From NCBI GenBank assembly GCA_046329195.1, contig JAXLVB010000001.1:2585235-2649234 (forward strand): a stretch of 64,000 nucleotides of DNA, read 5' to 3'. Source of the stretch: Spirosomataceae bacterium (GTDB lineage Bacteria > Bacteroidota > Bacteroidia > Cytophagales > Spirosomataceae). Below the pieces are notes generated by a model that was not told the DNA's origin, did no database searches, and was given only the letters and a program-made list of their open reading frames with translations. A program made the position numbers and the translations under genes. The first letter of the stretch is position 1. Each line of letters starts with the position of its first letter. Of the stretch, positions 3,421 through 63,545 are shown one piece after another.

Positions 3421-4400
3421 AATCATTTCGCTGGGGAATTATTGGCTTGGGGCGTATTGCCCGAAAATTTGCTGAAGGGCTACAGTTTGTACCCAATGCA
3501 CAATTGTATGCTGTAGCCTCTCGTGACCTCACCAAAGCACAAGCCTTTGCCGCTGATTTTCAGGCGACTCATGCGCTAGGTAGTTATGAAGCCATTACCC
3601 AGCTTGGCGACGTGGACGCCATTTATATTGCTACGCCCCATTCGGAACATCATGCTAATACCTTGATGTGTCTCAAGGCGGGCATCCCCGTACTGTGCGA
3701 AAAAGCGTTTGCTTTTAACTTGGCACAAGTACAAGAAATGGTCGGCGAGGCCCAAAGCCGTAAGGTTTTTTTGATGGAAGCCTTATGGACACGATTTTTG
3801 CCTGCCACTATCAAAACCCTCGAACTCATTGAAGCAGGCGAAATAGGCGAAATCAAACACATCTCAGCCGATTTTGGCTTCCTAGCTGATTACAACCCTC
3901 ACGGGCGTTTGTTCAATCCTTCTTTAGCCGGAGGTTCGTTGCTTGATATTGGTATTTATCCTTTGCTCATCAGCAAGTTTTTGTTAGGTAACCCTACCCA
4001 ACTCAGCGCCGTAGCTACCTTGACCGAAACAGGGGTTGATATGGCCTGCTCTATGGCCGCCCAGTTTGCTAACGGAGCCACAGCCACCTTGTTTTCGACA
4101 CTGGCTGCTCGCACCGACACTACAGCGGTTATTTATGGTACTAAAGGCAAAATAACGCTCCATACACGCTTTCACGAAGCCACAGCTTTATCCCTCCAGA
4201 TTACTGGACAAGAAGCACAATTGATTCCTTGCGAGCGTATGGGCGATGGCTACTGTTACGAGGCTCGCCATGTGCAAGAATGTTTGACTCAAGGGCTCAC
4301 CGAAAGCCCAGTAGTACCACTACAATTCAGTGTCGAACTCATGGCTATCATGGACGACATTCGCAAGCAGGTTGGGGTTGTGTACCCAGCTGATAACTAA
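3417..4400 (+). CDS. Gfo/Idh/MocA family NAD(P)-dependent oxidoreductase (cytoplasmic)
   Basis: Rossmann N-terminus WGIIGLGRIARKF and the EKA/EKP motif; its start overlaps the serC stop by 4 bp. Confidence 0.85.
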   Translation: MKSFRWGIIGLGRIARKFAEGLQFVPNAQLYAVASRDLTKAQAFAADFQATHALGSYEAITQLGDVDAIYIATPHSEHHANTLMCLKAGIPVLCEKAFAFNLAQVQEMVGEAQSRKVFLMEALWTRFLPATIKTLELIEAGEIGEIKHISADFGFLADYNPHGRLFNPSLAGGSLLDIGIYPLLISKFLLGNPTQLSAVATLTETGVDMACSMAAQFANGATATLFSTLAARTDTTAVIYGTKGKITLHTRFHEATALSLQITGQEAQLIPCERMGDGYCYEARHVQECLTQGLTESPVVPLQFSVELMAIMDDIRKQVGVVYPADN

Positions 4401-6440: not shown

Positions 6441-6460
6441 ATTCCAAACGAACGTTTGGT
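6441..6460. promoter_or_regulatory. Perfect palindrome CCAAACGAACGTTTGG(TA), 36 bp upstream of the TetR start. Candidate TetR operator.
   Basis: Seen in the sequence. The identical 18-mer recurs at 18753–18772. Confidence 0.5.
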
Positions 6461-6493
6461 AATTTTGATACGCATACCAAGTGAGCCAGTCCT

Positions 6494-7066
6494 TTGCCAA
6501 CTCAAAAAGTAACACGAGACGAAATTATCCTGAAAGCCATCGCTTTGTTTCGGCGGCAGGGGTATCATCGTACCTCGATGGCCGATTTGGCACAAGAAGT
6601 TGGCTTATTGAAAGGCAGCTTTTATCATTATTTTGAGAGTAAAGAAGCATTGATGGAGGCGGTACTGGTTCATGTTCAAGACGCTTTAAATCGTCGGGTA
6701 TTTCCATTGGCCTATCAAGAAGAGTTGACACCCTTTGAGCGTTTAGACAAAATGTTGCGCCGATTGGGTAAGAATCTTTTTACTGGCGAAGGGGGGTGTA
6801 TTGTAGGTAATACCACGCTCGAAACCTCCTTACTTGTTCCCGAATTTCGGACTATTTTGCAGCAAATCTTCGAGAGTTGGATTCAAGCCCAAACGCATTT
6901 GTATGCCTACGTGTATTCCCCAGACCAAGCTAAGCAACTGGCCGAACAGACCGTCATGGAATTTGAGGGCGCCATTATGTTTAGTAAACTATACAACGAT
7001 ACCCGTTACATCACTACCTGTTTTGAACGAGCACTTGACCGCATGAATGCCAGTAAAACTGAATAA
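6494..7066 (+). CDS. TetR/AcrR family transcriptional regulator (apparent TTG start)
   Basis: N-terminal HTH: ILKAIALFRRQGYHRTSMADLAQEVGLLKGSFYHYF. The ORF begins with TTG and has no in-frame ATG nearby. Confidence 0.85.
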   Translation: MPTQKVTRDEIILKAIALFRRQGYHRTSMADLAQEVGLLKGSFYHYFESKEALMEAVLVHVQDALNRRVFPLAYQEELTPFERLDKMLRRLGKNLFTGEGGCIVGNTTLETSLLVPEFRTILQQIFESWIQAQTHLYAYVYSPDQAKQLAEQTVMEFEGAIMFSKLYNDTRYITTCFERALDRMNASKTE

Positions 7067-7091: not shown

Positions 7092-7133
7092 AAAAAAGGC
7101 AATAAACTGACTGTCAGTTTATTGCCTTTTTTT
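7092..7133. terminator. Bidirectional rho-independent terminator between the convergent TetR and anti-sigma genes (A6–GGCAATAAACTGAC/GTCAGTTTATTGCC–T7).
   Basis: 14-bp perfect inverted repeat flanked by an A-run and a T-run. Confidence 0.8.
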
Positions 7134-8891: not shown

Positions 8892-9417
8892 CCGTTTTGA
8901 GTTGCCGTCTTAATAGTTCTTTTGCCCTCGAAAGCTGTGACTTCGAGGTATTTTCTGAAATATTCAGCATCTCGCCGATTTCGACATGGTTGAATCCTTC
9001 AATGACGTAAAGGTTAAAAACCATCCGATACCCATCGGGAAGCCGATTGATAAACTTCATTAATTCTTCGGTAGAGAAGTGGCTGTACATCAGGCTGTGG
9101 TCATCATTGCTGATGGATACATCCTGATAATCAACATCTAAGAGGTGGTCTTTGAGGTGTTGGTGGTAGTAGTTGATCGCCGTGTTGACGGTCACTTGCT
9201 TCACCCAACTAGAGATTGATTCGATTTTTTGGAGATGACCAATCTTCCGAAAAATCTTGACGAACGCTTCTTGAAAAATATCTTCGGCTTCGTGTGTAGA
9301 ACGGGCATAGCGCCTACAAATACCCATCACACGGCCTTTGTACATATTGTAAAAAGCCGTTTGTGAACGAGGGTCATTTTGTTGACAACCCAGTATAATT
9401 TCTACTTCTGAAACCAT
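8860..9417 (-). CDS. ECF-type RNA polymerase sigma-70 factor
   Basis: 185 aa with sigma-70 region 2 (FYNMYKGRVMGICRRY…DIFQEAFVKIF) and a region 4 HTH (VIEGFNHVEIGEMLNISENTSKSQLSRAK). Confidence 0.9.
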   Translation of the reverse strand: MVSEVEIILGCQQNDPRSQTAFYNMYKGRVMGICRRYARSTHEAEDIFQEAFVKIFRKIGHLQKIESISSWVKQVTVNTAINYYHQHLKDHLLDVDYQDVSISNDDHSLMYSHFSTEELMKFINRLPDGYRMVFNLYVIEGFNHVEIGEMLNISENTSKSQLSRAKELLRRQLKTVGIISYEQPE

Positions 9418-16590: not shown

Positions 16591-16660
16591 TAAAAAAAGT
16601 ATGCTTGCATACAAATTTGTGTAAAAATAATACAAATTTTATTATGCAAGCATACCATTT
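16591..16660 (-). terminator. Large imperfect hairpin (GTATGCTTGCATACAAATTT…AAATTTTATTATGCAAGCATAC) followed on the minus strand by T7. Intrinsic terminator of the DinB-like gene.
   Basis: About 22-bp inverted arms with a 12-nt loop, then a U-tract immediately 3' of stop codon 16673. Confidence 0.6.
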
Positions 16661-16672
16661 TGAATTTGCTTC

Positions 16673-17236
16673 TTATTTTTTTAGTGCATTCCAAATTTGG
16701 CGCTCATGGTGCCGAAAATGCGCATCCAGAAAGTCTAACATTTGAATCAGATTCAGCTTACCCGCTACCGGATGGCGAAACAAATCCCGCTCGGCGGCGC
16801 CTTCGGGCAACTCGTCGAGGAGAGCTTTGAGTTGCTGCCGAGTCTCTGTCCATTTTTCGGCTGTATGCGCCAATGTATCTGCTTCGGGCACGGAGGCTGT
16901 GGCAGGTGCTGCCTTTCGTTTCAAAAACGATGTAGCCAACCACACCTTCATCAGCCACGTTTTGAAGGCCGCTGAAAACCCTGTTTTTCGAGCCGAAGCC
17001 AGACCTAACACCTTCTTCCGTAGGTAATTAAGTGTATTAGCTTCTGACAAAATCAAGTGGTGCATCACCTGAATCGCCGACCATTTGTTAGGTTCGGGGC
17101 AGGTATTTAACGCCTGTTCGGGGTAGTCGGCAAGGCTCTGTACTAACGTGTTTCGCCGTTTTTCGGTACTATCAAAGAGTTGTTGTAGCTTAGGATCCAT
17201 GGGTTGTGTAGTGTTTAACCGAACGAAGATAGACAA
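16673..17236 (-). CDS. DinB/YfiT-like (DinB_2) four-helix-bundle metalloenzyme family protein
   Basis: 187 aa with conserved H…H spacing (VMHHLILSEANTL … HFRHHERQ). Confidence 0.65.
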   Translation of the reverse strand: MSIFVRLNTTQPMDPKLQQLFDSTEKRRNTLVQSLADYPEQALNTCPEPNKWSAIQVMHHLILSEANTLNYLRKKVLGLASARKTGFSAAFKTWLMKVWLATSFLKRKAAPATASVPEADTLAHTAEKWTETRQQLKALLDELPEGAAERDLFRHPVAGKLNLIQMLDFLDAHFRHHERQIWNALKK

Positions 17237-17269: not shown

Positions 17270-17812
17270 TTACTCTTGACTCACCGCTGCTAGGCGTTGT
17301 TGCATAGACTTGTGGTGATGACTGGTGTGGAAGGCCGTAAAGTAGAGCATTTCTCGCACACTCATTTTGCCCATCACAGGGTGTGGTATGATGTACGTAT
17401 CTAGCTCTTGTTCAGTCCATTGATTATTCATAATGTTTAATAGCTGGGCATTACTTTGCTGAAACTGCGCAACCACAACAGCCTTGTCGGGATTGGTATC
17501 AATGACAGGAATAAAATTACCCGTTGCTTTTAGCCCCTGCTCCAGCACAGCTTCGTATTTTTTTACTACTTCTGCGTACGCTCGAAGCGGCCAGTTGACC
17601 GTTCCCCATTTTTCAACTAAGTATTCTTTGGGTTTGGTCATCAAATAAGCCACCGGCTGCACCGATTGGATCAGGTGTTGGACGTTTTCGGCTGCCGACC
17701 AGACATCTTGGTCAGGGCGTGCAAAAAAATGCTCGGAGCTGGCTTCTTGTGCAGTAGCCACCACCTGTGATACTGCACTAGTCAGTAAATCAGTGAGTTG
17801 AGTTTTGTCCAT
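17270..17812 (-). CDS. DinB-family protein (start placed at internal Met MDKTQL)
   Basis: Helical bundle with H-rich C-terminus (FHTSHHHKS). The upstream 34 codons overlap the preceding promoter region. Confidence 0.65.
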   Translation of the reverse strand: MDKTQLTDLLTSAVSQVVATAQEASSEHFFARPDQDVWSAAENVQHLIQSVQPVAYLMTKPKEYLVEKWGTVNWPLRAYAEVVKKYEAVLEQGLKATGNFIPVIDTNPDKAVVVAQFQQSNAQLLNIMNNQWTEQELDTYIIPHPVMGKMSVREMLYFTAFHTSHHHKSMQQRLAAVSQE

Positions 17813-17850: not shown

Positions 17851-18750
17851 TTAAGCACGAACGGCAAGATGGTGTTGAAGGAACAGGTCGAGTTCGGATA
17901 GGGCTTTGGTCCATAAGGTCGCTTTGAACGACTTACGGAAAAACCCAAAATGGTCAATGGACTTAACGCCCAACGACTGAGGGTTCATTTCCTCAATGGA
18001 TACACCTTTTTCACTCTTGACGTGTTTCCAAAACACCTCAACCGCTTGCCGATTGGCAATTTTATCGTCGGTAGCCCATAGTACTTTGATAGGGAATTTG
18101 ATGGCATGATACCACCCTTTGGCAGGCCCATCGTTGTAAAATTTGGGGTCGAAAAAATAATCAGGCACACTGCACCACGCTCGCCATTGATTGGTGATAC
18201 GAGCAGGGAGGTCTTCCATCAACCCAAATTGTTTGACAGCCGTGTAGCCATACAGCCAATGGGTAAGAGGCCGAACAATCTCAAAAAAGAAATGGGTACG
18301 CAGCCGATACCCCAAGGGCATAAATCCCCAATACCCCGACGACGACGCCACCGCCAGTAAGCCAATAGCCTGATTGACAGTAGGCATCAGGGCGAATTTC
18401 TGCCCCCCTACGCTATGCCCCATCAGGATAATGGGGAGCGAGGGAAATTGTTGTTGAAGAAAAGCCATAACGCCAGTCATATCTTTTTGAGCCCAATCTA
18501 AGTATTCAAAATCGCAATGCTTCAAGCCCGAAGCCGGTTTTGAGGCGCCGATACCTCGGTAGTCAAACAGGCAAACGGCGTAGCCCTCCGTAGCCAAAAA
18601 TTGGGCAAAGGCACTGTAGTATTCTTTCGGAACGGCAGTGGCTCCGTTGAGTTGAACAAGGGCTTTGGGTTGGTCGGGTACCAACAAGAGGCCGCCCAAG
18701 GGGTAGCCGTCGGTGGCAGGAATAGTAATTGGATTCGTGTTGTAATTCAT
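17851..18750 (-). CDS. α/β-hydrolase fold protein (start placed at MNYNTNPITIPATDGYPLGG)
   Basis: GHSVGG nucleophile elbow and α/β-hydrolase topology. The long ORF's N-terminal extension is hydrophobic junk. Confidence 0.8.
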   Translation of the reverse strand: MNYNTNPITIPATDGYPLGGLLLVPDQPKALVQLNGATAVPKEYYSAFAQFLATEGYAVCLFDYRGIGASKPASGLKHCDFEYLDWAQKDMTGVMAFLQQQFPSLPIILMGHSVGGQKFALMPTVNQAIGLLAVASSSGYWGFMPLGYRLRTHFFFEIVRPLTHWLYGYTAVKQFGLMEDLPARITNQWRAWCSVPDYFFDPKFYNDGPAKGWYHAIKFPIKVLWATDDKIANRQAVEVFWKHVKSEKGVSIEEMNPQSLGVKSIDHFGFFRKSFKATLWTKALSELDLFLQHHLAVRA

Positions 18751-18752
18751 TT

Positions 18753-18772
18753 TACCAAACGTTCGTTTGGTA
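18753..18772. promoter_or_regulatory. Second copy of palindrome TACCAAACGAACGTTTGGTA, 2 bp upstream of the hydrolase ATG on the minus strand. Putative TetR operator.
   Basis: The identical 18-mer CCAAACGAACGTTTGGTA is at 6443–6460. Confidence 0.5.
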
Positions 18773-19319
18773 AAGAACGCTAAAAAATAAAATCCAATGC
18801 AAGTTTTTGGTAAAAAAATGATGCTTGCATACGATTTTGAAGGAGTATTACACTTACCCTCCTTGATTTTGTCATAGAAATCAACGGAAGAAAAGAAAGT
18901 AAGGTGCATACCTTATGCCACCGATTTACCTGATAGGGGCACGAAAGCACCAAAACCACCTAAATTTATGCCCATGTAACCACCCAAGGGTTTGATGGAG
19001 CAAACTTTGCCAACTAAAAAGCCCCTTAGCTAAGTTGGATATATGAAAATATTTGTGTATTCTTGGAAAGCTATTCGTAATATAGAAGGTAGGCAAAGCG
19101 AAAATAAATCGCACTAGATGAACGAGTAGCTATAGCGGAAATGAACGCAAGTTTTTAAAATTTAAACGCAAGGGTTGCGTTTATTTGGATGTTATTGGCA
19201 ACCGTAGGACGACCACGCAACAAGCCACAGAGTGACGAAACAGTGCAGGCGACTAAAAGCAATAACAAAACGACCTAAATAATATTCTATCTTTGTATAT
19301 GCAAAACCATAGGTAAATT

Positions 19320-20372
19320 ATGACAATAGAAGAACTTGCAGAGAGCATATATGAAGTTATTAAGGACTACAGAAATCACGACAATATTTTTATTTCTCAA
19401 CAATATATACTTGAATGGGCGGAGCAATTTGAAGATGATAGACTGCTTGTTTTGACAGAGCTGAATAAAATAATTAAAGAAACATACGTTTCAAGGGAGA
19501 AGGCAAAAGAATTTGTATTCGAGCATCTTCTTGAGTATTTGAAATTATACAAATACTCAAACATTTCAACATTTTTAATTGATACAGAATTTTTAGACAT
19601 CCAACAACCACATAAAAGTCAACCCTCAATTTTATACATATTGGAAGAAGTTTTAAATGAAAAATTTCAAGATTCGTATATAAGATACAAGAATTATCCC
19701 AAATTAAACTATGTTTATTTTGATGATATTCTTGCTTCGGGCAGCACTATTGGGAGAGATTCAATAAATTTCTTGAATAGGGTAGATTCATCAGGAAAAA
19801 GGTTTGATCAAAAGGTGCAAGACAATGAGATAAAATTTTCAATCAGCGTATTTTGTTTACACACTTGGGGATTTGAATTTCAGAAATTCAGAATTCAGAA
19901 ACAATTTAGCGACAAGGTGATGAAAAAAATAAATTGGTTTTGGAATTACGAAATTCAAAATCACGCAAGGTTCAACAACCAAAAACTTAATATTGCAAAA
20001 CCTGTAAAGGGAAATAATATAAAGATAAATGGTTATTTGGAAAATTTACCCGCAACTAAACATGAAGATTACGCATACAGGAAGGCAAGTACCCCAACAA
20101 CAGAACAGTTTTTCACATCTGCGGGCAACAGAATAAAATTTGAAAATATTTTGACTGAAAAAGGAATAGATATAATCAGTATGATACAAGGCGAAGTAAA
20201 ACCAAATATAAGACCATTGGGATTGATAAACCCACAATATAAAATATTTGGGTTAGGAACTCATTTTTTTACTTGGCGTAATATTCCCAACAATTCACCT
20301 TTGGTATATTGGTGGGAAGTACACGGGCATAATTGGAAACCATTATTTTCTGTCGCAAATAGAGGGAATTAA
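19320..20372 (+). CDS. Hypothetical protein with a type-I phosphoribosyltransferase-like PRPP-binding motif (NYVYFDDILASGSTIG), inside an AT-rich island. Candidate toxin/effector.
   Basis: The motif [VIL]x[VIF]DD[IL][IL][AS][ST]G[ST]T matches the PRTase P-loop, as in PyrR VILIDDVLATARM in this same window. The gene is strongly AT-rich with atypical codon usage, and a TAtcTTTG −7-like box lies 25 bp upstream. Confidence 0.5.
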   Translation: MTIEELAESIYEVIKDYRNHDNIFISQQYILEWAEQFEDDRLLVLTELNKIIKETYVSREKAKEFVFEHLLEYLKLYKYSNISTFLIDTEFLDIQQPHKSQPSILYILEEVLNEKFQDSYIRYKNYPKLNYVYFDDILASGSTIGRDSINFLNRVDSSGKRFDQKVQDNEIKFSISVFCLHTWGFEFQKFRIQKQFSDKVMKKINWFWNYEIQNHARFNNQKLNIAKPVKGNNIKINGYLENLPATKHEDYAYRKASTPTTEQFFTSAGNRIKFENILTEKGIDIISMIQGEVKPNIRPLGLINPQYKIFGLGTHFFTWRNIPNNSPLVYWWEVHGHNWKPLFSVANRGN

Positions 20373-20393
20373 AAAAAAGTTTAATTTAGCATC

Positions 20394-21011
20394 ATGAAGC
20401 CGAGCGTAAGGGAATACCAAATCAAAAATGTCATTACGTTTGCAAAGACAGACGGACATTTTGGAGCCTTGTCAAATATGGCACCGGGATTTAATTTGTT
20501 CATTAACGAAGTTAATATTCAAAGTTCCGAAATATTATATCAAGCATGTAGATTTCCATTGTTTCCTAATATACAAGAAGAAATAATTAGGACACAAAAT
20601 CCAATGAACGCTAAAAAAATTAGCCGACAATATATTCAATATAGTCGTCAAGATTGGGACACTGTAAAGTTTAAAATTATGAAGTGGTGTTTAGAAGTTA
20701 AGCTAATTCAAAATTTTGACAAATTCTCAAATATACTTCTTTCCACTGACGACAAAACAATAGTTGAGTATTCTAAAAAAGATGCTGTTTGGGGTGCAAT
20801 ATTAAAAGACGACAAGAGCACTCTTATTGGAAAAAACGCTTTGGGGCGACTTTTAATGGAATTAAGAGAAAAAGTCAAATCAGGCGATATAAATAAATCA
20901 ACAGTTATTCTTCCACCAAATATTCCTGCATTCTTATTGTTCGGAAATATGATTGAAGACGTAAGGAGTGACGAGTACTTCATACTTGACTTAGACGAAA
21001 TCTACGCATAA
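20394..21011 (+). CDS. NADAR (YbiA/DUF1768-like) domain protein
   Basis: GHFGALSNMAPGFNLFINEVNIQSSEILYQACRF matches the NADAR core (LSNF…F…S.EHyfQA.KF). It lies 21 bp downstream of the PRTase-like gene. Confidence 0.7.
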   Translation: MKPSVREYQIKNVITFAKTDGHFGALSNMAPGFNLFINEVNIQSSEILYQACRFPLFPNIQEEIIRTQNPMNAKKISRQYIQYSRQDWDTVKFKIMKWCLEVKLIQNFDKFSNILLSTDDKTIVEYSKKDAVWGAILKDDKSTLIGKNALGRLLMELREKVKSGDINKSTVILPPNIPAFLLFGNMIEDVRSDEYFILDLDEIYA

Positions 21012-26861: not shown

Positions 26862-28079
26862 CTATTTTGTAAACAACCGTTCTAACATAAACAAAGGCAC
26901 AAGCGGCTTGTGTCCAGTAAGTACCTCGGTTACGAGTTCGCCCAAAGCAGGGCCGTGCTTGTAGCCATGTCCAGAGCCTCCACCCAACAACCAGCAATTA
27001 TCGGCTTCGGGGTGTTGGTCAAGGATAAAATTACCGTCGGGGGAGTTTTCGTAGGGGCAAACACGGTTTTCGGCCAAAGGAGCATTCCTAAGAGCTGGAA
27101 ATCGGTGAGTAATAAACTGTCGAGCATGAGCCAGCACGTCAGGGTTTAGGATACGTTCGCCGTTGGTTGGGTCAAATACTTCGCCACGGCGGTCCACCCC
27201 TATCTTAAAACCTCGGTTGGCGTTGCCCGGGATGCCATAATAAAAATCTTGACCGTCCACATCTACCCAAACGGGCATTTGGTCAAACAACTGAGTGTGG
27301 GTGTAGGGTACTCCAAAGTAATAGGCTTCTTGTCGAGAACAGGTGATGACAGAACCCAATACTTCAGGAAATAACTTCCCCAACCATGACCCACACGCAA
27401 ACACATACGCATCGGCCTGCACCCTAGAGCCGTCAGAAAGCAGCAGGTGCTCCATCTGACCCCCTACGCATGGCCCCGGTTGCACGTGTGCTTGTAGGTA
27501 GGTACCCCCTTCGTTTACAAAAGCTTCTTGTACGGCTATGGCTCCTTCCCGAGCTTTGAGGTAGCCTCCTTCAGGGTCGAATAGCGCATGGTGCAAGTCA
27601 TCAGTATGAATGTGTGGATACTTTTGGTGTAGTTCGTGGGTAGTAAGATACTGATAGTTCAGGCCATACTTCTGCATAAACGGCACGCTTTCGTCAATCA
27701 TCGGCACGTGTTCTTCATAACAAAACCAAAGTACACCCGTTGGATGGAAAAGCTTTTTGCCAAAGCGTTCCTGATTTTCTTTCCAAAGCTCCAAAGCCCT
27801 CACATTGAGGTCAAAATACGTTTCGTTTGCTCCATACGTAGAGCGAATCACTCGGGTTTCGTCGCCTGAGCTACTTCGAGAGTTGCCAGCTCCCCACGCA
27901 TCAATGAGTGTCACTTTAATACCTTTGCGCAGCAAATATAGGGCCGTCCAACCACCAAAAGCACCTGCGCCTATCACAGCGACATGAGCCTTGATGCCCA
28001 AATTGGGGGCAAACCGTAATGTAGTTGGCGTGACGGACTCGGTAGGAGCGAAGGTATTTTGAGTGGAAGTAATGGGCAT
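26862..28079 (-). CDS. FAD-dependent oxidoreductase (DAO family; sarcosine/N-methyltryptophan oxidase-like)
   Basis: VAVIGAGAFGGWTALYL dinucleotide-binding motif and DAO-like length. Confidence 0.8.
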   Translation of the reverse strand: MPITSTQNTFAPTESVTPTTLRFAPNLGIKAHVAVIGAGAFGGWTALYLLRKGIKVTLIDAWGAGNSRSSSGDETRVIRSTYGANETYFDLNVRALELWKENQERFGKKLFHPTGVLWFCYEEHVPMIDESVPFMQKYGLNYQYLTTHELHQKYPHIHTDDLHHALFDPEGGYLKAREGAIAVQEAFVNEGGTYLQAHVQPGPCVGGQMEHLLLSDGSRVQADAYVFACGSWLGKLFPEVLGSVITCSRQEAYYFGVPYTHTQLFDQMPVWVDVDGQDFYYGIPGNANRGFKIGVDRRGEVFDPTNGERILNPDVLAHARQFITHRFPALRNAPLAENRVCPYENSPDGNFILDQHPEADNCWLLGGGSGHGYKHGPALGELVTEVLTGHKPLVPLFMLERLFTK

Positions 28080-28240: not shown

Positions 28241-28804
28241 ATGGCTGTAGCGTTTACCACCGTTACGACTGACGATGAAATCTTGCAGATACTGGAATTA
28301 CAACGTCAAAACTCTCCTCAAAATATTACAAACGAAACGCTTGTTAGTCAGGGCTTTGTGACGGTTCAGCATACGCCTGATTTGTTGCGTAGCATGAACC
28401 AAGCCTTGCCCCAAATCATTGCCAAAGACCAAGATCGAGTAGTAGGCTATGCGCTGGTGATGCCGCAGTCGTTTCAAGACTTGATTCCTGTCCTGAAACC
28501 TATGTTTGTGATGCTGGATTCGTTGTCGTGGAAATCAAAGGCAATTCCGACGTATAGTTACTATGTGATGGGACAGATTTGCGTGGCCGAAAGCCATCGA
28601 GGGCAAGGCATTTTCGACGGACTATACGCCAAACACAAAGAAGTTTTGTCGTCTTCATTTGAGTTGTGTATCACCGAGATTGCCGTACGAAACACTCGCT
28701 CCATGCGAGCACACGAGCGAGTGGGCTTTGAGTTACTACACAACTTCCAAGATGCTACCGATGACTGGAACCTTGTGGTGTGGGATTGGCGGGAAAGAGT
28801 GTAG
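28241..28804 (+). CDS. GNAT family acetyltransferase
   Basis: 187 aa with a GNAT-like core (HRGQGIFDGLY). Confidence 0.65.
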   Translation: MAVAFTTVTTDDEILQILELQRQNSPQNITNETLVSQGFVTVQHTPDLLRSMNQALPQIIAKDQDRVVGYALVMPQSFQDLIPVLKPMFVMLDSLSWKSKAIPTYSYYVMGQICVAESHRGQGIFDGLYAKHKEVLSSSFELCITEIAVRNTRSMRAHERVGFELLHNFQDATDDWNLVVWDWRERV

Positions 28805-28975
28805 AGTGTAAAGTGTAAAGTGTAAAGGTGAAAGGGGATAGGGGTAAAGAGTGTGAAGTGGAGAGATTAAAGGGGATAGGGGTAAAGAGTGTAAAGTGGA
28901 GAGATTAAAGGGTAGAGTGTAAAGTGAAGGAGGGAAAGGTGGGGGAGATATTGGGATGGGTTGGATGATAAAAAA
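28805..28975 (+). repeat. About 170-nt tract completely devoid of C on the + strand (G/A/T only). It consists of 3× GTGTAAA, 2× a 39-bp unit (AAAGGGGATAGGGGTAAAGAGTGTRAAGTGGAGAGATTA), and degenerate copies.
   Basis: Direct reading of 28805–28975. A related G-free copy on the opposite strand lies at 63481–63545. Confidence 0.7.
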
Positions 28976-46325: not shown

Positions 46326-49300
46326 ATGAAAAAGGTATATTTCTTGTTGATAGGTTGCTTGGGCTTAATACAGTTGAGTATGGCGCAAGCCCCTACCAAT
46401 CTCTCGCTGAGGGTGGTGAGCCCGGCTCAAATATGCGTGTCGTGGACCGACAATACGACGAGCGAACTGGGCTTTGAGGTAGAGCGTAGTACCGACCGCC
46501 TCACCTACACCAAAGTAGCCGATGTAGCGGCCAACACCACGGAGTTCTGCAATATCAACCTGAGCCCTTCGACCTTGTACTATTACCGGGTCCGGGCCAA
46601 GCTGACGGCTACAACCTTTTCGGGGTATTCGAATACCGATTTTGCTACCACTCAAGCTGCCCCTGATACACCTACTGGCTTGGCTGTAAGTGTGTTATCT
46701 ACCAGTTCGTTGCGGCTGCAATGGGGGTCTAATACATTTGCATATCAGTACGACATCGAACGCCGAACGGGGCAAACGGGTGCATTTGCCGTCATCGCAA
46801 CGGTCTCTTTTGCCCGATTGATCAATCGCCAATATGACAATACGGGACTCAATGACGGCACGGAGTATTGTTACCGAGTACGGGTAAGAGAAAATGACGG
46901 AACAACGTCTGCGTATTCGGCCATCGCTTGTGCTACTACGCCGCTGGCTCCGCCCACCGCCCCCGCCCGCCTGACGGCCACGGCGGTTTCGGCCACTCAG
47001 ATTAACCTATCGTGGGCAGATTTGTCTGATAACGAATCGGGTTTTGAAATTGAGCGTAGCACCGATACTCGCAATTATACCAAAATCGCCGATGTGGGTG
47101 CTAATGTGACCACGTACCAAAACACGGGTCTCAACGACAATACCCAGTACTGCTATCGAGTACGAGCCAAAAATACCGCTGGCAACTCGGCCTATACTGA
47201 CCCTGCTTGTGCGACCACCCCATTGGCTCCGCCTACTGCCCCCGCCCGCCTGACGGCTACAGCAGTTTCGGCTACTCAGATTAACTTGAGTTGGGCAGAT
47301 TTGTCTGATAACGAGACAGGCTTTGAAATCGAGCGTAGCACTGACACTCGCAATTATACTAAAATCGCCGACGTGGGCGCTAACGTGACCACCTACCAAA
47401 ACACGGGCCTCAACGATAATACCCAGTACTGCTACCGAGTACGAGCCAAAAATACCGCTGGAAACTCGGCCTATACTGACCCTGCTTGTGCGACCACTCC
47501 GCTAGCGCCGCCCGCTGTCCCGGCTCGCCTGACGGCTACGGCGGTTTCGGCGACCCAGATTAACCTATCGTGGGCGGATTTGTCTGATAATGAAAGTGGC
47601 TTTCAGGTAGAGCGAGGTAGCGATGGGGTGAATTTTACGAAGATTGCGGACGTCGCTGCCAATACCACGAGTTATGCCAATACGGGTTTGACGGCAAACA
47701 CCCGCTACTATTACCGAGTACGAGCCGTGAATACGGCGGGCAATTCGGCCTACTCCAACGTGGCCGATGCTACCACCCTCGACACGCCACCTCTTGCACC
47801 TACCCGCCTGACGGCCACGGCGGTATCGAGTAGTCAGATCAATTTATCTTGGGTCAATAACAGTACCAACGAAACTGGTATCGAGGTAGAACGCTCTACC
47901 GATGGTACTACTTTCACAAACATTGCTACCCTCCGACCTGGTACTACTACCTACCAAAGTACGGGCCTTACGGCAGCTACTCGCTACTGGTATCGGGTAA
48001 GAGCCGTGAATGCCGCTGGCAATTCGGCCTACTCCAACGTGGCCGATGCCACCACCCTCGATACGCCACCCAATGCGCCCGCTCGTTTGACGGCTACCGC
48101 TGTATCAAGTTCACAAATTGATTTGACTTGGGCGGATTTATCAAACAACGAAACGGGCTTTGAAATCGAAAGTAGCCCTGATGGTACTACTTTCACCAAA
48201 ATTGCTGATGTGGCGGCGAATGTCACTACCTACCAAAACACGGGGCTTACGGCTTCGACTCGCTACTGGTATCGGGTGAGGGCTAAAAACTCAGCGGGAA
48301 ATTCTAGCTACTCCAACATCGCTGATGCCACCACTCAAGCGCCTCCCGTGACGATTCCACGTCCGCCATCTAATTTGACGGCCACCACAGTAAGTAGCTC
48401 ACAGATAGACTTAGCTTGGACGGACAATGCTACGGATGAAACAGGCTTTGAAATCGAACGCAGCCCTGACGGTACTACGTTCACCAAAATCGCCGATGTG
48501 GCGGCGAATGTCACTACCTACCAAAACACGGGCCTCACGGCTTCGACTCGCTATTGGTATCGAGTTCGTGCAAAAAATACAGCAGGAAATTCCGCCTACT
48601 CCAACATCGCCGATGCCACCACGCAAGCGCCTCCCGTGACGATTCCGAGGCCACCTTCGGCGCTAACAGCCACCGCCATAAGTAGCTCCCAAATTGACTT
48701 GGCTTGGACGGACAATGCCACTGACGAAACGGGTTTTGAAATCGAGCGCAGTCCCGACGGTACTACGTTCACCAAAATCGCCGACGTAGCCGCCAATGCC
48801 ACCACCTACCAAAGTACGGGGCTAAACGCTTCGACTCGCTACTGGTATCGGGTTCGGGCTAAAAACTCAGCGGGAAATTCTAGCTACTCCAACATCGCCG
48901 ATGCGACCACGCAAGCACCTCCTGTCACCATTCCACGGCCACCTTCTAATTTGGTAGCCACCGCCATAAGTAGTTCCCAGATTGACTTGGCTTGGACGGA
49001 TAACGCTACTGATGAAACGGGTTTTGAAATTGAGCGCAGCCCCGACGGTACTACGTTCACCAAAATAGCTGACGTAGCCGCCAACGCTACCACCTACCAA
49101 AACACGGGTCTCACGGCTTCGACTCGCTATTGGTATCGAGTTCGGGCTAAAAACTCAGCGGGGAATTCTACTTACTCCAACATCGCTGATGCCACCACGC
49201 AGGCACCTCCCGTCACCATTCCACGGCCACCATCTAATTTGGTAGCCACCGCCGTAAGTAGCTCCCAAATTGACTTGGCTTGGACGGACAATGCTACTGA

Positions 49301-50633
49301 CGAAACGGGTTTTGAAATTGAGCGCAGTCCCGACGGTACTACGTTCACCAAAATCGCTGATGTGGCGGCGAATGTCACTACCTACCAAAACACGGGGCTT
49401 ACGGCTTCGACTCGCTACTGGTATCGGGTGAGAGCAAAGAACTCAGCGGGAAATTCCGCCTACTCCAACATTGCCGATGCGACCACTCAAGCGCCTCCCG
49501 TGACGATTCCGAGGCCACCTTCGGCGCTAACAGCCACCGCCGTGAGTAGTTCTCAGATTGACTTGGCTTGGACGGACAATGCCACCGACGAAACAGGCTT
49601 TGAAATTGAGCGTAGCCCCGATGGTACTACGTTCACCAAAATCGCTGACGTAGTCGCTAACGCCACCACTTACCAAAACACGGGTCTCACGGCTTCGACT
49701 CGCTACTGGTATCGGGTGAGGGCTAAGAACTCAGCGGGTAATTCCGCCTACTCCAACATCGCTGATGCCACCACACAAGCGCCTCCCGTCACGATTCCGA
49801 GACCGCCTTCGGCGCTAACAGCTACCGTATTATCCAGTTCGCAGATTGATTTAGTCTGGACCGACAATGCTACTGATGAAGCAGGTTTTGAAATTGAGCG
49901 TAGCACCGATGGTACCAATTTTACAAAAATCGCTGATGTCGCTACTAACGTGACGTTTTACTCCAATACTGGATTGAGCCCTTCTACCCGTTATTGGTAT
50001 CGGGTTCGGGCCAAGAATACGGCAGGTAATTCGGCGTATTCTAACGTGGCCGATGCCACCACCTCAGCAGCCTCTACAGGTGGAGGAACGCTGGCTGCCC
50101 CTCAAAATCTAAGAGCAACCCCCATTGATTTTGATTTGGTACGCCTTTCGTGGACACCGTTGCCCTCCAATACCCCTGCCACTTCAATTATCATCGAACG
50201 TTCAACGAGTCCTACGGCTGGCTTTGTCCAGATTGGGCAAGTACCTGCTGATGCTATTGTGTTTGCCGACAAAGAAATCTTAAATGTAGTCAATCAATAC
50301 TATCGCATCAAGGCCGTAAATGCTACCAACAGTTCACCCTATAGCAATGTGGCAACAGTTTTGGCTAATGCCATTATTACGGCTGTACCCGCCTCTGTCT
50401 CGCCGAAAATAACGATCGCAGCAGCGTCTGAAAAGTTGCTGATTCGCTTAGAACAAGCGAACCCGTCGCCTGCTCAGGTGAGCGTGTATTCGTTAGCCGG
50501 AATGCCTGTTTATCAGGCAGTGCTGCCCACCGATACGTCTTGGCAAGTGGATTTACACTATCAAACAGGACTCTTTATTGTTGTAGTAGAAACCAACCAA
50601 GCCGTGGCTACCCAAAAAATCATTCTACCATGA
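46326..50633 (+). CDS. T9SS-secreted surface protein with ~14 tandem fibronectin type III domains and a C-terminal Por-secretion (T9SS) sorting domain
   Basis: Signal peptide. The ~96–99-aa unit repeats about 13 times (…LTATAVSSSQIDLAWTDNATDETGFEIERSPDGTTFTKIADVAANVTTYQNTGLTASTRYWYRVRAKNSAGNSAYSNIADATT). The C-terminus has a CTD-like segment (VSVYSLAGMPVYQ…GLFIVVVETNQAVATQKIILP). Confidence 0.85.
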   Translation: MKKVYFLLIGCLGLIQLSMAQAPTNLSLRVVSPAQICVSWTDNTTSELGFEVERSTDRLTYTKVADVAANTTEFCNINLSPSTLYYYRVRAKLTATTFSGYSNTDFATTQAAPDTPTGLAVSVLSTSSLRLQWGSNTFAYQYDIERRTGQTGAFAVIATVSFARLINRQYDNTGLNDGTEYCYRVRVRENDGTTSAYSAIACATTPLAPPTAPARLTATAVSATQINLSWADLSDNESGFEIERSTDTRNYTKIADVGANVTTYQNTGLNDNTQYCYRVRAKNTAGNSAYTDPACATTPLAPPTAPARLTATAVSATQINLSWADLSDNETGFEIERSTDTRNYTKIADVGANVTTYQNTGLNDNTQYCYRVRAKNTAGNSAYTDPACATTPLAPPAVPARLTATAVSATQINLSWADLSDNESGFQVERGSDGVNFTKIADVAANTTSYANTGLTANTRYYYRVRAVNTAGNSAYSNVADATTLDTPPLAPTRLTATAVSSSQINLSWVNNSTNETGIEVERSTDGTTFTNIATLRPGTTTYQSTGLTAATRYWYRVRAVNAAGNSAYSNVADATTLDTPPNAPARLTATAVSSSQIDLTWADLSNNETGFEIESSPDGTTFTKIADVAANVTTYQNTGLTASTRYWYRVRAKNSAGNSSYSNIADATTQAPPVTIPRPPSNLTATTVSSSQIDLAWTDNATDETGFEIERSPDGTTFTKIADVAANVTTYQNTGLTASTRYWYRVRAKNTAGNSAYSNIADATTQAPPVTIPRPPSALTATAISSSQIDLAWTDNATDETGFEIERSPDGTTFTKIADVAANATTYQSTGLNASTRYWYRVRAKNSAGNSSYSNIADATTQAPPVTIPRPPSNLVATAISSSQIDLAWTDNATDETGFEIERSPDGTTFTKIADVAANATTYQNTGLTASTRYWYRVRAKNSAGNSTYSNIADATTQAPPVTIPRPPSNLVATAVSSSQIDLAWTDNATDETGFEIERSPDGTTFTKIADVAANVTTYQNTGLTASTRYWYRVRAKNSAGNSAYSNIADATTQAPPVTIPRPPSALTATAVSSSQIDLAWTDNATDETGFEIERSPDGTTFTKIADVVANATTYQNTGLTASTRYWYRVRAKNSAGNSAYSNIADATTQAPPVTIPRPPSALTATVLSSSQIDLVWTDNATDEAGFEIERSTDGTNFTKIADVATNVTFYSNTGLSPSTRYWYRVRAKNTAGNSAYSNVADATTSAASTGGGTLAAPQNLRATPIDFDLVRLSWTPLPSNTPATSIIIERSTSPTAGFVQIGQVPADAIVFADKEILNVVNQYYRIKAVNATNSSPYSNVATVLANAIITAVPASVSPKITIAAASEKLLIRLEQANPSPAQVSVYSLAGMPVYQAVLPTDTSWQVDLHYQTGLFIVVVETNQAVATQKIILP
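46941..50063 (+). repeat. Coding tandem DNA repeat array of 11 units of ~288–297 bp. Several units are >95% identical at the nucleotide level.
   Basis: Units starting at 46941 and 47229 encode identical peptides except for one residue. Units 8–13 (~48330–50063) are near-identical. Confidence 0.85.
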
Positions 50634-63480: not shown

Positions 63481-63545
63481 GCAACAACTTTTGCACTCTC
63501 CACTTTAACCTTTACACTTTAACCTTTACACTTTTAACCCTTACA
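63481..63545 (-). repeat. G-free tract on the + strand (CACTCTCCACTTTAACCTTTACACTTTAACCTTTACACTTTTAACCCTTACACTT). It is the reverse-complement relative of the C-free GTGTAAAG/GTGGAGAG repeat at 28805–28975.
   Basis: Direct reading; shared GTGTAAAG and GTGGAGAG units. Confidence 0.6.

Follow-up and report, generated by a model that had tools for sequence, protein, structure and literature searches.

A palindromic site shared by a TetR-family gene and a distant hydrolase-DinB-DinB operon in Spirosomataceae: a predicted regulon

Related operators and regulators in described systems

The operator of PsrA from Pseudomonas, C/GAAAC-N2-4-GTTTG/C, has been experimentally footprinted, and sites of this type are found both in the promoter of the regulator itself, which is autorepressed, and at distant target promoters (PMC13104628). 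A comparable arrangement is predicted in the window, i.e. the whole 64-kb stretch of Spirosomataceae DNA analysed here, in which two copies of one palindrome lie 12 kb apart, one before a TetR-family gene and the other before an operon encoding an alpha/beta hydrolase and two DinB-family proteins. Like the PsrA site at rpoS (TTCAAAC-N4-GTTTGAA), the window site consists of CAAAC and GTTTG half-sites separated by a 4-nt spacer (PMC13104628), whereas its extended flanks, TACC...GGTA, are specific to it. The two systems differ in other respects. The window TetR carries a TetR_C_13_2 domain and is similar to other TetR subfamilies only in its N-terminal part. The targets of PsrA are fadBA, rpoS or similar genes, whereas those predicted here are hydrolase and DinB genes. 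The PsrA ligands are long-chain fatty acids, which should not be assumed for the window TetR.

A second described system is that of PaaR (TTHA0973) from Thermus thermophilus, the operator consensus of which is 5'-CNAACGNNCGTTNG-3' (PMC6651687). In the window site, the 14-bp core CAAACGAACGTTTG agrees exactly with this consensus and also fits that of PsrA. The short form of the PaaR site that was selected in vitro, AACnAACGTTnGTT, resembles the sites AACAAACGTTTGAT and ATCAAACGTTTGTT that precede tetR and the hydrolase gene in one of the related loci, L164 (PMC6651687). PaaR controls phenylacetate catabolism, whereas no paa genes are present here, and the two proteins are alike only in the type of their DNA-binding domain. 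Likewise, similarity between the window TetR and FadR of Bacillus is limited to the N-terminal part. With its TetR_C_13_2 domain and its predicted hydrolase and DinB targets, the window TetR does not appear to be an ortholog of PsrA, PaaR or FadR.

LmrA and YxaF are TetR repressors that respond to flavonoids and whose operators are found at their own genes as well as at a further transcription unit. They share the Pfam C-terminal family TetR_C_13_2 with the window TetR, whose best full-length match among solved structures is YxaF of Bacillus subtilis (1sgm, E = 4e-13, residues 6–170), at a low sequence identity. Their operator sequences differ from the window palindrome and their targets are efflux pumps, not hydrolase and DinB genes. 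A more distant likeness concerns NemR and AcuR. Many homologues of the window TetR are labelled 'repressor of nem operon' in their sources, and the structure of NemR (4yze) gives a weak match (E = 5.9e-6). AcuR is the best NCBIfam match, with a score of 85.7 bits against a cutoff of 247, so that the window TetR is not a member of that family. The likeness includes a cysteine in the GGC(I/L)xGN motif of the ligand domain (EGGCIVGN in the window TetR), a candidate counterpart of the redox-sensing Cys106 of NemR, and the types of neighbouring genes (quinone oxidoreductase, DinB thiol-transferase-like) suggest the handling of reactive compounds. The operator of NemR differs from the window palindrome, and the window TetR gene has no nemA- or gloA-type target next to it.

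The two palindromes and the genes behind them

The regulator is encoded on the plus strand at 6494–7066, where the earlier note had placed a TetR gene. The predicted protein (190 aa, TTG start) combines TetR_N (PF00440, the N-terminal HTH, 8.6e-17), which covers residues 11–57, with an LmrA/YxaF-like C-terminal domain (TetR_C_13_2, 3.2e-12), and it is the sole TetR of the window. Its TTG start (6494) lines up with the ATG of homologues (MPxQKVT...) and TTG is likewise found in a 72%-identical homologue, L162, whose contig starts only 46 nt 5' of the gene, the operator region lying outside it. The predicted operator of tetR, O-tetR (TTCCAAACGAACGTTTGGTA, 6442–6461, plus strand), is located 32 nt 5' of the TTG and 58 nt past the stop codon of a cupin gene that precedes tetR on the same strand. 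In Bacteroidota, the -7 consensus known from Bacteroides promoters is TAnnTTTG. The box TAATTTTG at 6460–6467 (plus strand) matches it, overlaps the last 2 nt of O-tetR and is what we take to be the -7 promoter element of tetR. Because the palindrome overlaps this -7-like box, a repressor bound at O-tetR would occlude RNA polymerase, and O-tetR probably mediates the autoregulation of tetR. Past the TetR stop codon, a perfect hairpin with 20-bp arms and with A and T runs at its flanks (7092–7132, repeat pair I10) is likely a bidirectional terminator that would make tetR monocistronic.

The other predicted operator, O-hyd (TACCAAACGAACGTTTGGTA, 18753–18772, minus strand), is separated from the hydrolase ATG (18750) by only 2 nt, the minus strand reading ...gttctt TACCAAACGAACGTTTGGTA aa ATG... 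Its arms, TACCAAACG and CGTTTGGTA, are 9 bp each and flank a non-symmetric AA. The earlier note had reported the same 18-mer at both promoters, and CCAAACGAACGTTTGGTA is indeed identical in the two. Over 20 bp, O-tetR and O-hyd are equal at 19 positions, and a search with O-hyd finds O-tetR as the sole other site in 64 kb even if up to 3 mismatches are allowed. The same search with the 20-bp site gives on average 0.00 matches in 100 dinucleotide-preserving shuffles, in agreement with the view that a match by chance is very unlikely. The description of the site as an 18-bp palindrome has to be qualified: dyad symmetry is present, but it is not perfect, the geometry being 9+2+9 at O-hyd and 8+2+8 at O-tetR. 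An unbiased repeat search recovers the two sites as an inverted pair (I5) with 26-nt arms that are 88% complementary, and a central GAAC is common to both when each is read toward its downstream gene.

The position of O-hyd had been described as the ribosome-binding region. The site does abut the start codon and this position is conserved; the term itself is loose, since Bacteroidota, to our knowledge, generally lack Shine-Dalgarno sites. A sigma-70 promoter scan returned nothing useful near O-hyd, and poor prediction of sigma-70 promoters is to be expected for Bacteroidota.

A relaxed search with a 16-nt core (14 specified bases) adds only one site to these two, CCAAACGGGCATTTGG at 27267–27282, with 1 mismatch; by a rough hand estimate, about 0.02 such matches of the core are expected by chance in 64 kb. 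It is located about 800 nt inside a gene for a DAO-family FAD oxidoreductase (26862–28079, minus strand), and it was set aside as a third operator, being probably non-functional. It could be coincidental, or else a weak site within the gene.

The operon behind O-hyd is encoded on the minus strand. Its first gene (17851–18750) specifies a 299-aa alpha/beta hydrolase (Pfam Hydrolase_4, 8.6e-17), and the ATG at 18750 is confirmed by a 100%-identical protein of 299 aa (P0121) encoded on a 3.1-Mb contig of a Spirosomataceae MAG. The two following genes encode DinB_2 family proteins (17270–17812, 9.9e-15, and 16673–17200, 2.7e-14). The start of the first DinB protein is assigned by homology to M35 of its ORF, where the tblastn alignments with three related loci (L051, L094 and L098) begin. 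The longest ORF of the second one runs from TTG 17236, the alignment with L051 starts at residue 13, and the start is probably ATG 17200; this protein shows a weak similarity to the YfiT bacillithiol transferase family. The gaps between the genes are short (38 nt between the hydrolase and the first DinB gene, 69 nt between the DinB genes), and the last gene is followed by an intrinsic terminator (16591–16656, minus strand, repeat I3), a long hairpin built from two GTATGCWWGCATAC copies, with U7 behind it. The fold of this RNA has an energy of -26.5 kcal/mol (z = -4.85, 0 of 200 shuffles being as stable). The strong terminator and the short gaps define a three-gene unit, so that both the extent of the operon (18750 to 16673) and its composition were correctly anticipated by the earlier note; the label 'detoxification-like' that it gave to the operon is a guess.

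The terminator belongs to a second palindromic motif, GTATGC-NN-GCATAC with A/T-run flanks, which occurs in the window at 16599–16612, 16642–16655 and 18819–18832. The two downstream copies of GTATGCWWGCATAC pair into the terminator hairpin. The third one, which has 2 mismatches, is followed by a T-run and lies about 70 nt upstream of the hydrolase ATG (repeat D13); it probably represents what is left of the terminator of a gene once located upstream, and marks the 5' boundary of the unit. The same box is found at 4137–4150 and 6626–6639 of L051, a locus from another Spirosomataceae MAG, where it brackets the hydrolase-DinB-DinB unit as it does in the window and where a GTATGCWWGCATAC-type box lies just past the stop codon of the upstream gene. 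No further copy of the box turned up in the 1.25 Mb of loci that were fetched. A role as a second regulator site was considered and rejected, as the positions after stop codons and the T-runs fit terminators better.

The next genes on the same strand, which encode a PIG3-type quinone oxidoreductase, an enoyl-CoA hydratase and a dienoyl-CoA-reductase-like SDR, are syntenic in L051. An extension of the operon into these genes was rejected for the window, where the strong terminator follows the second DinB gene; it is possible in L051, where the hairpin is weak. On the other side, divergently from the hydrolase operon (19320–21011), the window carries two genes, one for a protein of 350 aa with a PRTase-CE domain and one for a protein of 205 aa with a NADAR domain. 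This pair, which looks like a defence or ADP-ribose-related island, takes the place of a 438-aa gene located upstream of the hydrolase gene in L051.

Occurrence of the site and of the gene set in other genomes

A scan of a species-representative genome collection for WCCAAACGWWCGTTTGGW gave at least 119 loci, in which TetR-like genes were detected by using the window TetR as a query. Among the loci listed, the start of 28 TetR-like genes falls no more than 400 nt from the palindrome, versus 6 such genes elsewhere, although this zone makes up only 10.8% of the fetched DNA (886 kb), which corresponds to an enrichment of about 38-fold. In the matches listed, the palindrome is always upstream of the TetR start, at a distance of 6–162 nt, and the adjacent TetR genes come from Bacteroidota, Chloroflexota, beta- and alpha-proteobacteria and Campylobacteraceae. 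The encoded proteins have related recognition helices (G-LLKGS-F/I/L-YHYF and similar). The same picture emerges from 39 metagenome contigs in which the full 20-mer was located. As it tracks TetR genes and as its core fits the sites of PsrA and PaaR, the palindrome, judged by its sequence, belongs to a known and widespread TetR operator type. A link between the variant of the recognition helix (YHYF or YYHF) and the long or short form of the operator was considered and found inconsistent, since beta-proteobacterial regulators with YYHF have the long form.

In Chitinophagales and Saprospiraceae, a ACCAAACGWWCGTTTGGT palindrome is located 5' of etfB-etfA-like genes, mostly divergent from a conserved gene encoding 106 aa. 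It is also found 5' of a thiolase-like gene and beside acyl-CoA dehydrogenase-like genes (all names given by eye from the N-termini). Such fatty-acid-type contexts were seen in L026, L027, L043, L053, L076, L119, L141 and L150, in L093, and in L079, L133 and L143. This implies a fatty-acid-degradation TetR regulon with the same operator type in these groups. As the same operator precedes etfB/etfA-like genes elsewhere, the motif alone does not identify the regulator. In one Saprospiraceae MAG, GFS_9243, the palindrome occurs at least six times, on four contigs (L054, L061, two sites in L079 and two in L109). Some of them are in tandem, 28–56 nt apart, and some lie inside longer hairpins with A/T runs, e.g. 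aaaaaaagccttACCAAACGTTCGTTTGGTaaggctttttt. These copies point either to a large regulon or to a spreading of the site in the manner of a repeat.

The earlier note had proposed to check whether the association between operator and genes is conserved in related genomes, and it does recur in relatives. In Runella, Emticicia and other Spirosomataceae, TetR homologues that are 41–56% identical to the window TetR adjoin homologues of the hydrolase and DinB genes, with the same or a shortened palindrome. The tetR, hydrolase and DinB genes are adjacent or co-operonic in seven loci (L062, L094, L098, L140, L146, L163 and L164). Five of these harbor a single operon behind TTTACCAAACGWWCGTTTGGTAAAA, namely Runella defluvii (L062), a Runella MAG (L094), a Spirosomataceae MAG (L098) and two metagenome contigs (L140 and L146), with identities to the window proteins of 46–47% for TetR, 38–45% for the hydrolase and 42–45% for DinB; no second site was found between the genes of these five operons. 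In the Runella-type promoters, the palindrome is followed after 20 nt by a TAnnTTTG-like box (TACCATTG or CACCTTTG), and TTTG in the right half of the palindrome would then act as a -33 element.

The two other loci contain adjacent units. In L163 (Emticicia-like) and L164, whose TetR proteins are 49% and 56% identical to that of the window, respectively, tetR and the hydrolase-DinB genes each lie behind a shortened site, TACCAATCGTTTGGTA or CAAACGTTTG (9340–9360 and 9971–9988 in L163; 9254–9268 and 9927–9945 in L164). In this Emticicia-type operator, CAAACG-NN-CGTTTG is replaced by CAAAC joined directly to GTTTG or by TACCAA-N4-TTGGTA. The long form and this shortened one parallel the native and in vitro-selected sites of PaaR from Thermus.

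The split arrangement of the window also has counterparts. In L051, where the hydrolase is 67% identical, the same palindrome abuts the hydrolase ATG, and the 32 nt around the site (TTTACCAAACGAACGTTTGGTAAAATGAATTA) are 100% conserved amid diverged intergenic DNA. In Arcicella sp. GCA_025454855.1 (L166/L167), a version with 2 mismatches, TTACCAAACAATCGTTTGATAAAATG, lies against the hydrolase ATG, again at a distance of 2 nt, and the TetR homologue of this assembly is encoded on another contig. In L001, a related site, TACCAAACCACCGTTTGGCA, is located 9 nt before a SnoaL-hydrolase-ADH operon (53% identity for the hydrolase), 8 kb from a gene encoding a 59%-identical TetR. Between genomes, the identity ranges of TetR (41–76%) and of the hydrolase (49–67%) are alike, which fits a module that would have diverged as a unit and been rearranged.

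The full palindrome is absent from the own promoters of three TetR homologues, those of L001 (59% identity), Arcicella aurantiaca (54%) and Arcicella sp. (51%), and one hydrolase homologue, L165, has no operator site. Autoregulation of tetR is thus not universal. The TetR homologue of A. aurantiaca is preceded by a different double palindrome, ACAGACTTTAGTCTGT, in two copies. At this place (L002, 9930–9985, before the TetR P0010), a perfect inverted repeat with 24-bp arms (GTAACACAGACTTTAGTCTGTAAG / CTTACAGACTAAAGTCTGTGTTAC) holds two ACAGACT-NN-AGTCTGT palindromes and is not an ACCAAAC-type site. A co-evolved operator in Arcicella was considered and rejected, as the hydrolase gene of Arcicella sp. 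has an ACCAAAC-type site and the recognition helix is unchanged.

Proposed regulation and alternative explanations

Taken as a whole, the 20-bp palindrome is quite likely the operator of the TetR encoded at 6494–7066, which is predicted to repress its own gene and the hydrolase-DinB-DinB operon. The following model can be drawn from these sequence comparisons. Without ligand, a repressor dimer, or a pair of dimers, would bind to 6442–6461 and to 18753–18772. Binding at the former site would lead to autoregulation of tetR, while binding at the latter would block transcription initiation or very early elongation of the operon. Once a ligand is bound in the LmrA/YxaF-like C-terminal domain, the repressor would leave the DNA and the three genes would be induced. 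Two options can be considered for the hydrolase promoter: either the right half of the palindrome, AACGTTTG, would itself be the -7 box and the mRNA would be nearly leaderless, or the promoter would lie upstream and the repressor would act as a roadblock at the start. The C-terminal domain and the 'nem repressor' labels of homologues suggest a hydrophobic or electrophilic small molecule as the ligand. A remote TetR regulon made of the regulator's own gene and this operon had been put forward in the earlier note and is supported by comparative genomics; we infer binding, repression, the promoter geometry, the ligand and the choice of this TetR, rather than a paralogue, as the regulator.

A more far-reaching version would make TetR, palindrome, hydrolase and DinB a conserved inducible module of Cytophagales (Spirosomataceae, Runella, Emticicia and Arcicella) that responds to a small molecule, xenobiotic or lipid-derived. 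In this version, AACGTTTG would double as the -7 element, the mRNA would be leaderless or nearly so, the repressor would sit on the start of both transcription and translation, and the fusion of operator, promoter and start codon would be maintained across genera. All these elements together make a tentative and rather doubtful proposal.

The regulator that binds before the hydrolase operon might be a TetR paralogue encoded outside the window, which would also control tetR 6494 or cross-talk with it. Candidates would be a fatty-acid-degradation regulator of the FadR/PsrA type or a second, Runella-type tetR-hydrolase-DinB system. The window covers only 64 kb, the genome from which it comes includes a contig of 3.1 Mb, and several of the comparisons above are compatible with such a paralogue: the same operator type precedes etfBA-, thiolase- and acyl-CoA dehydrogenase-like genes in other Bacteroidota, the palindrome lies beside very diverse TetRs in other phyla, and the TetR homologues of Arcicella and L001 have no site in their own promoters although the hydrolase gene has one. 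However, the TetRs linked to hydrolase and DinB genes in the seven loci belong to the same LmrA/YxaF-like clade, most of them have the recognition helix of the window TetR (GLLKGSFYHYF), and the window TetR gene carries the identical site in its own promoter. Moreover, in the Spirosomataceae and Runella loci listed, the site is found at the hydrolase gene or at tetR (except in L039) and never at fatty-acid genes. A paralogue appears unlikely.

It is much less probable that the palindrome acts as RNA, i.e. that an 8–9 bp hairpin 5' of the AUG limits translation of the hydrolase and that the other copy is a weak terminator after the cupin gene. In the predicted fold of the region, the palindrome does form a hairpin (-19 kcal/mol, z = -4.4), but any DNA palindrome folds as RNA, so that the fold is not independent evidence. 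The hairpin at 6442–6467 is followed by AATTTTG, 58 nt past the cupin stop, and the core lies inside longer hairpins with A and T runs in Saprospiraceae and some other genomes. Neither copy looks like an intrinsic terminator, however: O-hyd is at a 5' end and has no T-run, and the AATTTTG tail of O-tetR is weak. Across phyla, the sequence itself is conserved beyond pairing and tracks TetR genes. No compensatory changes were seen. The two substitutions in Arcicella are at positions that do not pair with each other, so that each breaks a stem pair. It is hardly credible, lastly, that the match between the two copies is accidental, or that they form part of a REP- or MITE-like dispersed repeat, devoid of regulatory meaning; the earlier note had itself raised a dispersed repeat as a possibility against its prediction. 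The multiple copies in GFS_9243, some of them in longer palindromes, are reminiscent of a repeat, but the window has only two copies, both at gene 5' ends, the similarity between them ends at about 26 nt, and their flanks are not repeated. In addition, both the position and the sequence are conserved at orthologous promoters in other genera. The shuffles, which gave 0 matches, the conservation in L051 and Arcicella and the TetR enrichment effectively refute a chance match or a repeat.

Control of both units by the TetR of the window is thus a well-supported but ordinary regulon prediction, drawn from sequence comparison, for an operator type already described for PsrA and PaaR, and it leaves current concepts of TetR regulation unchanged. 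If confirmed, it would provide a clean and tractable set of regulator, operator and target in Spirosomataceae, a group with few characterized transcription factors. It would also give a handle on the function of the widespread hydrolase/DinB gene pair, as the inducer should relate to the substrate of the enzymes, so that the TetR ligand would inform on their function. The loci compared show how one module can occur in three forms in which the operator is kept: a single operon, two adjacent units, and a split regulon whose parts are at least 12 kb apart. As CAAAC-N4-GTTTG is common to many TetR subfamilies, motif-based prediction of regulons needs to take the clade of the regulator into account as well.

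Two repetitive features were observed elsewhere in the window. Long tandem repeats of 279–288 nt lie inside a coding region at 46600–50113, which probably encodes a repetitive surface protein. A short tandem array of the AGTGTAAAG type is located at 28795–28953 and has an inverted partner 34 kb away (63488–63542).
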